Of a stretch of DNA of 64,000 bases, positions 7,675 to 16,199 are shown piece after piece; the stretch's first letter is position 1, and every line of letters begins with the position of its first letter. The position numbers and the translations under genes were made by a program. The stretch is taken from assembly GCA_902801025.1 (NCBI GenBank), contig CADCGZ010000028.1, positions 2,264-66,263 on the forward strand. Direction: 5' to 3'. The stretch is from an uncultured bacterium (GTDB taxonomy: Bacteria; Verrucomicrobiota; Kiritimatiellia; RFP12; UBA1067). The notes under the pieces are model-generated. The model saw nothing but the letters and a program-made list of their open reading frames with translations, searched no databases and was not told where the DNA came from.

Positions 7675-9039
7675 ATGACTGATGAACTAAAGCACGAATG
7701 TGCCGTGGCGATGGTGGTCTTGAGAAAGTCCGCCGTCGCCACCGGCGATTTCGGTGGGACAAAGCTTTCGCTCCTTCTCGAAAAACAGCACAATCGCGGG
7801 CAGGACGGCGCGGGCGCGGCAATACTCTCGGCCAATCCCGAACCTGGCGAGACACCGTACTGGATCGCCAAGTCTGCGTCCGCTACACCGCTCACGGATG
7901 TGCTTGGAATGATCGGGAAGAGAAGCAGTGTTCAGACAGGATTTGAAAGGGTCTTTCTCGGTCATCTTCGCTACGCCACGTTCGGGAAAAACGACGTGGC
8001 GTTCTGTCATCCATTCGTGCACGAGTCGAGCGAACTGAATCATACGCTTCTTCTCGCCGGAAACTTCAACCTCACAAACGCCCACGAGCTTTTCGACGAC
8101 TACCGCCACCGCGGTTCATTCCCGACGAGCAAGTCGGACGGCTATCTCATCTGCGAGATTATTGCACAGGCGCTGAAAAATATTAGCCGTGTAGAACATG
8201 TAGAGCATGTAGAATTAGAACCGAATCTACATGATTCTACATGTTCTGCATGGTCAGAATCTGCTTTGTCACGCGCTATCTCCACGGCATTGAAGAACGC
8301 CGACGGCGCATGGACGCTCTGCGGCATGACCGCAGACGGATGGGCGTTTGCGACGCGCGACCCGCACGGCATCAGGCCTGGCTGGCACTACATCGACGAC
8401 GATGTCGTTGTCGTCGCCTCCGAGCGTGCCGCCATACAGGCGGCGTTCGACGTGCCGCCCGAAGCCGTGAAGGAGCTTCCGCCTGGCGAAGCGCTTGTCG
8501 TCTCGCCGGAAGGGGAAGTCAAGTTTGTTGATTTGAACCGTGCAGAACATGTAGAACGTGTAGAAAGCAATACTTCTGATCTACATGTTTCTACATGTTC
8601 TACACGGCTTGAAAAACCACTTGCCCGTCCCTGCTCTTTCGAGCGCATCTACTTCTCCCGTGCGAACGATGCCGACATCCACCGCGAGCGCAAGGCGCTT
8701 GGCGCGGCACTTGTGCCGCGGATCCTCGAGGCCGCCAATGCGCCGATGGACCGCATCTTCTTCAGCTACATTCCCAACTCCGCGCGCATCGCCTTTCATG
8801 GACTTCTGGAAGATTTGTTCAAGAGATGTGTTTCACCGCAGAGCCGCGTTAATAATATCCCGCGCTTTGGAGAGGTGGCGGTGAAGGACGCGAAGTTCCG
8901 CACGTTCATCGCTGACGCTGCGGCAAGGCGCGAGTTCTACAAGCATGTCTACGACGTGACCTACGGGCTCGTCAAGAAGGACGATACGCTCGTCGTGCTC
9001 GACGATTCGATCGTGCGCTTGGGCCGAAGAGAATCGTGA
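7675..9039 (+). CDS. purF: Amidophosphoribosyltransferase (PurF), N-terminal/major part; ends prematurely at a frameshift/deletion inside the PRPP-binding motif
   Basis: Propeptide plus catalytic Cys (MTDELKHECAV..), RGQDGAG, Fe-S ligand CSFERIYFSRAND, VVLDDSIVR then stop. Contains two in-frame family B repeat insertions (8186-8252, 8538-8608). Confidence 0.7.
   Translation: MTDELKHECAVAMVVLRKSAVATGDFGGTKLSLLLEKQHNRGQDGAGAAILSANPEPGETPYWIAKSASATPLTDVLGMIGKRSSVQTGFERVFLGHLRYATFGKNDVAFCHPFVHESSELNHTLLLAGNFNLTNAHELFDDYRHRGSFPTSKSDGYLICEIIAQALKNISRVEHVEHVELEPNLHDSTCSAWSESALSRAISTALKNADGAWTLCGMTADGWAFATRDPHGIRPGWHYIDDDVVVVASERAAIQAAFDVPPEAVKELPPGEALVVSPEGEVKFVDLNRAEHVERVESNTSDLHVSTCSTRLEKPLARPCSFERIYFSRANDADIHRERKALGAALVPRILEAANAPMDRIFFSYIPNSARIAFHGLLEDLFKRCVSPQSRVNNIPRFGEVAVKDAKFRTFIADAAARREFYKHVYDVTYGLVKKDDTLVVLDDSIVRLGRRES
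8186..8252 (+). repeat. Family B palindromic element (gtagaacatgtagaa / ttctacatgttctac arms), copy 1, in frame inside purF
   Basis: Imperfect 66-bp hairpin; translated as SRVEHVEHVELEPNLHDSTCSAW. Confidence 0.75.
8538..8608 (+). repeat. Family B palindromic element, copy 2, in frame inside purF
   Basis: ccgtgcagaacatgtagaacgtgtagaaag...ctacatgtttctacatgttctacacgg; translated NRAEHVERVESNTSDLHVSTCSTRLEKP. Confidence 0.75.
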
Positions 9040-9572
9040 TCGCCTCTTCCGCGCCACCAATCCGCTACCCAGACTGCTATGGCATCGACATGTCGACGCT
9101 GGGAGAGCTTGTAGCATTCAAGGCGCTTGTAAATTTGCTGGATGGGGAACGGGGAACGTATCCCCCGAGCGAAGCGAGCGCCGAAGGCGGCTCAATGCGG
9201 GGTGGGAACGGGGAACGGGAGTTGCGCGAAGCGCTTGCCGAAATTGAACATCTACACGTTTCTACATGTTCTACACGGTTAAAATCATTAAACCCTCTCG
9301 CATCCCTCTATGCGCGCTTCACTGAAAAGCAACACGCTGCAGAAATTGCCCGACTTCTTACCCCTCCGGGAATGAAGGCCGAAGTCGTTGTGGTCTATCA
9401 GACGATTGAAGACTTGCATAAGTCTCTTGCTCCCGTTCCCGGTTCCCGGTTCCCCGTTCCCCGAATTGGTGACTGGTATTTCACTGGCGACTATCCGACA
9501 CCTGGCGGATACAAGGTGCTGCGAAAGGCGCTTCTGAATTACTTGGATAAGAATTCGGAAAGGTCGTATTAG
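9036..9572 (+). CDS. purF: PurF C-terminal fragment in a different frame (GTG 9036 overlaps the upstream stop); carries three repeat insertions
   Basis: SAPPIRYPDCYGIDM ... GDWYFTGDYPT match the PurF C-terminus. In-frame family A (9144-9221, 9430-9465) and family B half-unit (9250-9278) insertions. Confidence 0.6.
   Translation: MIASSAPPIRYPDCYGIDMSTLGELVAFKALVNLLDGERGTYPPSEASAEGGSMRGGNGERELREALAEIEHLHVSTCSTRLKSLNPLASLYARFTEKQHAAEIARLLTPPGMKAEVVVVYQTIEDLHKSLAPVPGSRFPVPRIGDWYFTGDYPTPGGYKVLRKALLNYLDKNSERSY
9144..9221 (+). repeat. Family A element (ggggaacggggaacg terminal direct repeats flanking a gtatcccccgagcgaagcgagcgccgaaggcgg core), in frame in purF
   Basis: Translated [26 protein letters not shown]. 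The same unit occurs in pyrG (12768-12838) and, reversed and duplicated, in carB (15488-15627). Confidence 0.75.
9250..9278 (+). repeat. Family B half-element (right arm only) in frame in the purF C-terminal fragment
   Basis: atctacacgtttctacatgttctacacgg followed by ttaaaat, as in other copies. Confidence 0.6.
9430..9465 (+). repeat. Family A core oligomer, reverse orientation (cccgttcccggttcccggttccccgttcccc), in frame in purF
   Basis: Translated APVPGSRFPVPRI. Confidence 0.6.
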
Positions 9573-15800: not shown

Positions 15801-16199
15801 AATGTCTTCCTCTCGGTGCGCGACGAGGACAAGCCGCGTGTCGCCGAGCTTGCCGCGAAGCTCAAGGAACTTGGCTTTGGCATCTACGCGACGCTTGGCA
15901 CTTCGACGTATCTTTGGGGACACGGCATTGAGTCGAAGGCGGCATTCAGGATATCCCGTGGCCGCCCCAATGCGATCGATCTGATGCGCAAAGGCGAGAT
16001 ACAGTGGGTCGTAAACACATCCGAGTCTGACGGCGAGGCATCTGGAGATTCGGTTCAGCTCCGTTCCGCGGCCGTCGCTACTGGCGTTCCAGTGACGACT
16101 ACGCTTGCTGGCTTCGCCGCAGCCGTCGCAGGTCTCGCTGAGGACTGCGCAGAAAGCTCGGTCTACAGTCTGCAGGAGTATCACACTGGCAACAGGTAG
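12873..16199 (+). CDS. carB: Carbamoyl-phosphate synthase large subunit with three in-frame repeat insertions
   Basis: Duplicated ATP-grasp halves ([16 protein letters not shown], EVNPRxSRxxALxSKATG twice) and an MGS-like C-terminus. Insertions: family C at 14176-14270 and 14476-14545, family A (tandem, reversed) at 15488-15627. The carA-pyrG-carB order is unusual. Confidence 0.9.
14176..14270 (+). repeat. Family C palindromic element in frame in carB (caaagaacgcagagaacgcaaagaca ... cactttgcgaactttgcgatctttgcgg)
   Basis: Translated [31 protein letters not shown]. Confidence 0.7.
14476..14545 (+). repeat. Family C palindromic element in frame in the carB inter-domain linker
   Basis: gccgcagagaacgcagagaacgcaaagacagaatgtcctttgcgctctttgcgtactttgcggc, translated [24 protein letters not shown]; preceded by a tattattcg tandem duplication. 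Confidence 0.7.
15488..15627 (+). repeat. Family A element, two tandem units in reverse orientation, in frame in carB
   Basis: Contains cgctcgcttcgctcgggggatacgtt twice and ends in cattccccgttccccg; translated [42 protein letters not shown] in a loop (E. coli has a short KEVIPPYYSVKE segment). Confidence 0.75.

Follow-up and report, generated by a model that had tools for sequence, protein, structure and literature searches.

Short repeat elements read in frame within the nucleotide-biosynthesis genes of an uncultured Kiritimatiellia bacterium

What are the short repeats that lie inside purF, carA, pyrG and carB of an uncultured bacterium of the Kiritimatiellia, and on what terms do the essential enzymes encoded there accommodate them? 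We address this question for a stretch of 64,000 nucleotides (nt), hereafter the window (GenBank assembly GCA_902801025.1, contig CADCGZ010000028.1, positions 2,264 to 66,263), in which glnN, purF, carA, pyrG and carB occupy the + strand between 5383 and 16199 and whose nearest public PyrG relatives are annotated Kiritimatiellae metagenome-assembled genomes (MAGs), many of ruminant gut origin. Relatives of the clade include GCA_017406465.1 and GCA_045536845.1. With a probability of roughly 0.6, the repeats are understood as several co-resident families of very short dispersed elements, which we infer to be selfish, filtered to permissive loops and open reading frames. The proposition that repeat DNA is here tolerated as extra peptide loops, in the manner of the Rickettsia palindromic elements (RPEs), had been made in an original prediction from the letters of this DNA; as far as sequence comparison can tell, it is supported by identical copies of 27-84 nt, by pairs of filled and empty alleles and by insert placement in alignments to solved structures.

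Repeat finders together with direct reading delimit 16 repeat loci between 7620 and 15630, 13 of them within the coding sequences (CDS) of purF, carA, pyrG or carB and the other 3 in spacers or gene ends. The original prediction had counted at least 14 copies of five unrelated families; the repeats are real, but about seven families (A-G, in window 7.6-16.2 kb) are involved, and A, B and D share one common design. The family A pattern is matched 13 times in the window against 0.02 matches expected, the GGGGAAC dimer of family E 14 times against 0.04. The predicted concentration in the nucleotide-biosynthesis block is borne out in the loci of seven relatives (independent assemblies with the same gene cluster, from NCBI, ENA and JGI), in which arrays of period 7-10 number 1.97 per kb in the purF-carB block and 0.26 per kb in flanking genes (p ~2e-31). 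This concentration is conserved in 7 lineages.

The basic unit of families A to D is a box of 27-33 nt, composed of a leader (TTAGCC, TTAACC or TTAAC) and three tandem purine-rich units of 7-9 nt, the unit being GTAGAACAT in A, CGCAGAGAA or CGCAAAGAA in B, ACAGGATTA in C and CGCAGAGG in D. Families E (GGGGAAC) and F (AGGAGTC or GGGGTCA) are built of heptamers. Family G is an element of 45-59 nt nested in E arrays, found inside GGGGAAC arrays at three loci, and a related element, G2, is nested in a D arm; nested elements measure 45-69 nt overall, and nesting is frequent, extending to a C element in a D loop. Some boxes stand alone, others follow one another in a single orientation as strings of mixed families, and others again form convergent inverted pairs. 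The last is the commonest form in the window, with the leader outside, a loop of 0-60 nt between the arms and a hairpin of 70-120 nt in total. The loci of the block are as follows, z denoting the folding score relative to shuffled sequence.

7620..7668, + strand: family F heptamer array (GGGGTCA/AGGAGTC) in the glnN-purF spacer, its end 7 nt before the purF ATG.
8183..8256, unstranded: family A convergent inverted pair within purF (three copies of GTAGAACAT, a loop, three reverse-complement copies); z -7.1; read as SRVEHVEHVELEPNLHDSTCSAWS; same element and same site in L007.
8533..8614, unstranded: family A inverted pair within purF; z -7.9; read as LNRAEHVERVESNTSDLHVSTCSTRLE; L001 has the element, L005 has it with a partial deletion, and L004, L006, L007 and L008 have other sequence in its place.
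9144..9221, + strand: family E GGGGAAC heptamers within purF, split by a family G element of ~46 nt.
9250..9290, - strand: solo family A arm in reverse orientation, within purF.
9430..9465, - strand: family E array (reverse complement, CCCGTTC) within purF, read as PVPGSRFPVPR.
9566..9625, + strand: family F heptamer array in the purF-carA spacer, its end 8 nt before the carA ATG; ~67 nt longer in L006.
10061..10095, + strand: family E heptamer array within carA, read as GERGMGNGERE; in relatives the array is absent, or a longer GGGAAGA array or a GGAGAAT array is found.
10183..10266, unstranded: family C inverted pair (three copies of ACAGGATTA) within carA; z -6.3.
10806..10931, unstranded: family A composite of two left arms and one right arm, from which carA draws its final 7 codons and its stop, and which occupies the carA-pyrG spacer; this junction holds another family in every relative.
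11965..12083, unstranded: family D inverted pair (three copies of CGCAGAGG) within pyrG, after EAEE; z -6.9.
12403..12520, unstranded: composite within pyrG, before ISERHRHRY, whose left arm is of B type and whose right arm, of D type, contains the nested G2 element (12436-12504).
12765..12860, + strand: family E heptamers and a nested family G element, forming the PyrG C-terminal extension.
14178..14267, unstranded: family B inverted pair (three copies of CGCAGAGAA) within carB, in the oligomerisation domain; z -7.4; family C or another family at this site in relatives.
14475..14546, unstranded: family B inverted pair within carB, directly before a 14-residue stretch; z -7.0.
15491..15630, - strand: family E array (reverse complement) that contains two tandem family G elements, located in the linker of carB that precedes a 16-residue stretch.

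The inverted pair has the properties of a discrete element. Among all sequences gathered, pairs are convergent in 47 cases and divergent in 3, an excess that argues for a defined structure and not for chance neighbours, and seven of eight folded elements reach z between -5.7 and -7.9, with only a loop-less intergenic pair (21412-21482) being weak (z -2.4). The loops are mostly site-specific; yet whole elements including the loop recur at unrelated sites, such as the C element found in the window's carA and in purF of L007 and L001. No Rfam family was matched by the window or by eight box-rich loci, and the family A hairpin peptide, used as a 52-residue synthetic query, found no match at E <= 1. 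Repeats of the CRISPR type, LexA/Cheo boxes and CsrA sites were considered by eye and dropped, their order, spacing or consensus being unfit.

No internal copy brings a stop into the frame in which its gene reads it; of the three sense frames, a hairpin family leaves just one or two open, and the frame used by the gene is invariably an open one, while the E arrays are open in all six. Among the metagenome matches listed, the 22 family A copies strictly within CDS are confined to 3 frames. It had been claimed that every copy keeps the frame and introduces no stop. This is accurate for internal copies, which contain no stop and whose indels are multiples of 3, but not at gene ends: the family A element at the carA 3' end carries the stop codon, and the heptamer array at the PyrG C-terminus varies by 35 nt, which is not a multiple of 3 and alters the stop codon used. 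Viewed as a contingency locus, the block offers internal length changes in multiples of 3 (21; 63, 84, 105 nt) and no frame switching, the non-multiple change being restricted to the PyrG C-terminus, and contingency-locus microsatellites were rejected as an identity.

The consequence for the proteins is substantial. Repeat-derived codons make up ~111 of the 645 in pyrG and ~100 of the 1108 in carB. PyrG has 645 residues compared to ~545-550 in solved CTP synthases, and CarB has 1108 compared to 1073 (+35), in good agreement with the ~100 and ~40 extra residues predicted. In alignments to solved structures the surplus falls between alignable blocks, that of PyrG at residues 346-379, 490-531 and 613-645 and that of CarB at 874-917 (+34 residues) and 535-556, with ~13 residues added before a 14-residue stretch and a further stretch replaced in the oligomerisation domain. 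The CarA elements fall in the linker between the N-domain and the GATase domain and roughly replace the native linker length, and the PurF inserts are located around the interdomain region. The expected placement in linkers and loops thus agrees with the structure alignments of PyrG, CarA and CarB, with PurF also aligned, and on this evidence the positions are fold-compatible in CTP synthase, CarA/CarB and PurF, as they are in the RPE case. These alignments are the basis of the placement; the AlphaFold2 model of PyrG (18-sequence alignment) had a pLDDT of 33 and was unusable. Once expressed, the inserted DNA would be translated into extra loops of low complexity.

Comparison of the relatives reveals the dynamics at these positions. 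Across the seven assemblies the proteins are nearly invariant outside the insertion sites, and at fixed sites in purF, carA, pyrG and carB the lineages have a different family, a nested composite, a remnant or an empty site. The PyrG site after EAEE is the clearest example: among 120 homologues of 80-96% identity and 557-634 residues (557 to 645 with the window included), it shows at least 8 alleles, comprising B, C, D in two frames, D', H, a GGAGTTGGAG type, the empty WKETKD and chimeras. The three PyrG sites combine their alleles in many ways among these homologues, which points to recombination. Filled and empty alleles differ by 48, 63, 84 or 105 nt; the 63-nt pair is G2 in L007 versus L001, and the 48-nt pair is the PyrG C-terminal element compared to L004. 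A near-identical 84-nt family C copy occupies purF of L007 and L001 where the window's purF is empty, and the empty allele at that position reads ACAGGATT, that is, the terminal unit of family C itself. Several inserts replace a few native bases. The heptamer arrays, finally, vary between relatives by whole units, with 21 nt at the carA site and 35 nt at the PyrG C-terminus.

The same comparison settles the concern about assembly. The window shares family A in purF with L007, the pyrG composite with L004 and L007, and the G element of the PyrG C-terminus with L005; identical elements at identical sites in independent assemblies exclude an assembly artefact. The demand that the extra segments show repeat identity at the nucleotide level, and not merely that of ordinary lineage-specific loops, is answered by identical sequences of 27-84 nt in non-homologous genes and in other species. 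Recombination between lineages appears frequent. As separate observations, a PyrG stretch of 22 residues (window 12540-12700) has at least 3 discrete haplotypes shuffled among otherwise near-identical proteins, and a recombination breakpoint in purF of L007 coincides with its family C element.

Outside the block, repeats recur both in the window and in other genomes. The copies elsewhere in the window are listed below.

18296..18342, + strand: octamer array (AACCTTTC) of a different family, in frame within kdsB.
21415..21482, unstranded: family A inverted pair without loop, intergenic, after ligA.
31772..31800, + strand: solo family D box, intergenic, upstream of ribD.
35494..35566, + strand: within a GH2 gene and in frame, a family E array and, after it, the right arm of family D.
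45547..45580, + strand: heptamer array (CTTTAAA/CTTTCAA) of a different family, in frame within lpxB.
57612..57650, + strand: family F heptamers directly upstream of the ATG of a DUF58 gene.

The statement that the families of the block recur in kdsB, lpxB and a GH2 gene is therefore correct for the GH2 gene, whereas the kdsB (AACCTTTC) and lpxB (CTTTAAA) arrays are of other families; intergenic occurrence, also claimed, is confirmed by the family A pair after ligA and the solo D box upstream of ribD. The exact 27-mer of family A is present in at least 120 metagenome contigs and in ~10 other MAG species (labelled uncultured bacterium, Lentisphaerae or Verrucomicrobia), and a 15-mer scan of genome contigs returned mostly chance matches, with ~11 true family A loci among the matches listed. 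In these data, family A boxes often stand in same-orientation strings with boxes of other families, and solo boxes are found in frame in a GH2-like protein and in Ser/Thr kinase linkers. A few IMG/VR contigs contain D boxes, and one G element was also detected there. Among the viral material, L251 (IMGVR_UViG_2510461066_000001) has twelve matches to D-type (CCTCTGCG) boxes on one strand between 3500 and 8900 of a viral-classified contig of 9.9 kb; three further viral contigs carry D boxes and one carries the G core.

The manner of spread is constrained by what the insertions leave behind. Among 125 listed family A boxes, flanking direct repeats of 3 nt or more are no commoner than in shuffled sequence, and the family C pairs show no consistent target-site duplication, which speaks against a miniature inverted-repeat transposable element (MITE) of the DDE type. 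Distant inverted family A arms (0.4-1.6 kb apart; L102, L198) were considered as the ends of an autonomous element: in the ~1 Mb searched, they enclose ordinary genes, a GH2-type gene or a small GxxExxY-type gene, and not a transposase. The missing target-site duplication, in combination with target homology, replacement of native bases and nesting, favours selfish spread by a route that leaves no duplication. To proceed, the elements would multiply as genomic parasites either by single-strand transposition of the inverted pair, of the HUH/RAYT type (RAYT being the tyrosine transposase that accompanies repetitive extragenic palindromic, or REP, sequences), or by templated, microhomology-guided copying during repair, with new copies favouring sites in or beside existing boxes. 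Within genes, selection would retain copies in permissive linkers, loops and termini that have a stop-free frame and a net length divisible by 3. A site once occupied could then become a neutral safe harbour in which nested insertions, deletions and replacements accumulate, and homologous recombination between lineages would reshuffle the resulting alleles.

An extension of this mechanism, possible rather than probable, is that the triplet box of ~30 nt is itself a new kind of minimal mobile unit, with many families of one design. Boxes would spread without target-site duplication, home to other boxes and pair head to head in one polarity, and at fixed positions of essential enzymes they would behave as exchangeable peptide cassettes. 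An HUH transposase, a small PD-(D/E)XK nuclease of the GxxExxY type, or a templating polymerase or reverse transcriptase would be the candidate driver.

Several observations weigh against selfish, loop-tolerated repeats. No transposase, RAYT, Y1_Tnp or other mobilising gene appears in the Pfam tables of L001-L008 (~1 Mb fragments). The 7-fold excess of the purF-carB block over neighbours such as glnN, polA, bamA and smc is not explained by loop tolerance alone. Perfect solos outnumber pairs, 110 to 15 in the 125 instances among the metagenome matches listed, which is awkward if pairs alone are mobile. Single arms of families A, B and C fold with 0 to -1.9 kcal/mol, no better than shuffled sequence, and solo boxes are therefore not stem-loops of the REP type; the arms of hairpins are, furthermore, often unlike (GTAG versus GCAG) without compensation, indicating that pairing is not tightly kept. 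Lastly, a function for the host could be indicated by exact conservation across species, by co-orientation of ~70% of family A boxes with neighbouring genes (matches listed) and by recurrent placement just upstream of a TGGTATAAT module.

That last point leads directly to the view of the boxes as functional cis elements, sites for a host protein or signals at the RNA level kept by selection, with the genic copies as collateral. Three tandem 9-bp units would then represent an iteron-like site and the AGGAGTC arrays a Shine-Dalgarno-like sequence, the latter in accordance with the position of family F arrays directly upstream of three start codons in the window. Much of the family A evidence can be read this way: in the matches listed, 81% of the unique metagenome boxes lie outside CDS (intergenic or at gene ends), with 22 of 113 unique instances strictly within CDS; many follow a stop codon at 0-60 nt or precede a start codon by 9-70 nt, in the orientation of the genes; and in several loci the box directly precedes the conserved, promoter-like TGGTATAAT module, as it also precedes GxxExxY-type genes. 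The identity of the 27-mer between species fits equally. We nonetheless consider a cis function unlikely as the primary explanation, given that at least 7 families with unlike unit sequences behave in the same way, that copies are placed in arbitrary loops of unrelated enzymes, kinases and glycosidases, that the family at one site changes between relatives while the gene context is constant, and that no known RNA family matches.

Somewhat less probable again is the idea that no dedicated mobile element exists and that templated, microhomology-mediated repair copies purine-rich patches or extends ends with tandem units, the head-to-head arrays and box strings being repair scars. Such a process would leave no target-site duplication and would partly replace native bases, as the inserts do in place of clean additions; it is consistent with the 8-nt homology between target and element end in purF, with the strong bias to the convergent arrangement (purine-rich arm first) and loops unique to each site, and with frameshifting deletions at 2-nt microhomology in conserved regions of two assemblies. 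Opposed to it are whole elements that recur with their loops at unrelated sites, and the sharpness of the element itself: in the 125 family A boxes listed, the TTTAG leader is sharply conserved, the flanks are C-poor and the three-unit length is fixed, as expected of a defined element rather than arbitrary filler. Ordinary lineage-specific low-complexity loops arising from replication slippage, or artefacts of metagenome assembly, are very improbable. Heptamer arrays do vary by whole units (21 and 35 nt), and the window is MAG-like with at least one suspicious deletion, but identical sequences of 27-84 nt in genes without homology to one another, and in at least 120 contigs from metagenomes, rule out local slippage as the sole process, and recurrence of the same elements at the same sites in NCBI, ENA and JGI assemblies is incompatible with an artefact.

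Regarding known systems, there exist clear analogies to more than one class of repeat. RPE-1 to RPE-10 are palindromic families inserted in frame in Rickettsia genes (Ogata et al. 2000, 2002, as summarised in PMC10969869). Common to both cases, in the terms of that summary, are multiple palindromic families placed in frame in unrelated conserved genes without disruption of the open reading frames (ORFs), extra peptide segments at tolerated positions and the lack of a known transposase. The elements of the window are set apart by host and description: they are found in a free-living gut or rumen bacterium of the Planctomycetes-Verrucomicrobia-Chlamydiae (PVC) group, compared to an obligate intracellular alpha-proteobacterium, and measure 30-120 nt instead of ~100-150 nt. 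Unlike RPEs as that source presents them, they have arms of three tandem 7-9 nt units, occur commonly as solos and box strings, and replace one another by family at the same codon position in close relatives.

The intragenic GTAG/CGTC REPs and their dimers, for which Opitutus terrae and R. conorii have the highest numbers (Di Nocera et al. 2013, PMC3733652), provide a closer parallel. They share with the present elements a PVC host (Opitutus terrae), the occurrence as singletons, inverted dimers with variable spacers and clusters, dimers within ORFs that encode 20-30 residues, and the lack of target-site duplication (PMC3733652). Inverted doublets with a spacer that form a long hairpin, accompanied by singlets, are likewise the pattern of the REPIN-RAYT systems (Bertels & Rainey 2011, PMC3116915), from which the present case differs in having no RAYT in the Pfam tables noted above (~1 Mb). 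A REP is a stem-loop, and a single box is not; membership in the classical REPs was rejected for the missing fold of single arms. The REP tag is a terminal GTAG or CGTC, and the conserved end here is TTTAG-CC, with a TTAG/TTAA leader; the family A unit does hold GTAG three times, and families B, C and D have GCAG or ACAG. Density in a single block is much higher here, and site-specific family switching is not described for REPs. In their behaviour the elements are closer to the intragenic GTAG REPs of Opitutus terrae than to RPEs, and they are members of neither.

MITEs and foldback elements resemble the hairpins in being non-coding, 70-120 nt long and bounded by terminal inverted repeats of sub-repeats around a variable interior. 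They differ in that the present elements have no target-site duplication, that no cognate insertion sequence was found in ~1 Mb and that half-elements are abundant and perfectly conserved. For the heptamer arrays, Elhai and co-workers (2008) reportedly described cyanobacterial short tandemly repeated repetitive (STRR) heptamer arrays with small dispersed repeats (SDR, 21-27 nt) embedded between the units. The likeness is one of architecture only, with tandem heptamers, an element between units, nested insertions and no obvious enzyme; phylum and sequences are different, many copies here are in essential genes and would be translated, and the nested element has 45-69 nt.

The claim of novelty requires adjustment in the light of these parallels: intragenic GTAG REPs had already been reported in a PVC bacterium, Opitutus terrae (PMC3733652), but the variant features are new. 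These are the three-tandem-unit box common to many families, the pairing in one polarity, the density in four essential enzymes and the swapping of families at identical codon positions in close relatives.

Should the interpretation as selfish repeats be true, it has importance in adding a second, independent instance, at much higher density, of what is seen in Rickettsia, repeat DNA written into essential proteins, here in free-living gut bacteria whose natural populations are large. Public metagenomes already contain many alleles of each site, be they empty, filled, nested or swapped, so that birth, turnover and fitness limits become measurable, and a route is offered to learn how repeats of <100 nt are mobilised when no transposase can be recognised. 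In CTP synthase, CarAB and PurF, the insertion sites mark where 10-45 additional residues are tolerated. In practical terms, marker enzymes become longer and more variable in length through the insertions, by which annotation, orthology calls and strain typing of Kiritimatiellae MAGs may be misled.

The purF gene of the window calls for separate comment. It is split into ORFs 7675-9039 and 9036-9572 by a deletion of 43 nt at 9018/9019 relative to all seven relatives, which removes GNTMKNAILPMLDR from the phosphoribosyl pyrophosphate (PRPP)-binding region, is flanked by a 2-nt GC microhomology and is not within a repeat. The original description of conserved housekeeping ORFs needs correction for purF on this account, the frameshift being unrelated to the repeats; the split gene is either a pseudogene or an error of assembly or consensus. 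A similar lesion, a frameshifting deletion of 29 nt with AG microhomology, is seen in a conserved part of carA at L008 4718-4723.

Two gene contexts of family A boxes are worth recording. On the 3' side of the box in L132 (97-210), L133, L156, L233 and L185 there is a conserved module of ~100 nt, composed of TGGTATAATATGC..., a variable stem-loop with compensatory changes and then GAGGTATTCGGCTGCATACCCCACGNGCGCGGAGCGT, without Rfam match. It may be a leader RNA or a cassette boundary, and the genes downstream are defence-like (OLD/AAA_15-like ATPase, DUF4062-like, nucleotidyltransferase-like, GNAT). In L198 (8100-8590), L153 and L222, one to three tandem boxes precede small GxxExxY-type (PD-(D/E)XK-like) genes of a multi-copy, nuclease-like family, and are read in frame as an N-terminal extension.

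Further observations concern other parts of the window. A near-perfect palindrome of 155 nt (17616-17770) lies between divergent genes (end at 17613; kdsB start at 17775), with both ends TGGTATAAT-like; similar TTTTGGTATAAT / TTTTTGGTAAAAT motifs are found upstream of genes at ~31268 and ~42462, and the TGGTATAAT-like motif looks like an extended -10 promoter consensus. At 42481-45978, an SMC_N/AAA ORF of 798 codons continues in frame, without an intervening stop, into lpxB (ATG at 44875), representing either a real fusion or a lost stop codon. Tandem repeats with periods of 18, 36 and 39 nt, unrelated to the boxes, occupy 23011-23456 in the C-terminal part of an FHA-domain protein (22593-23501). 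Upstream of glnN, at 3713-5225, a HipA-family kinase toxin gene (3951-5225) follows a small ORF resembling a helix-turn-helix protein, the two forming a toxin-antitoxin pair.

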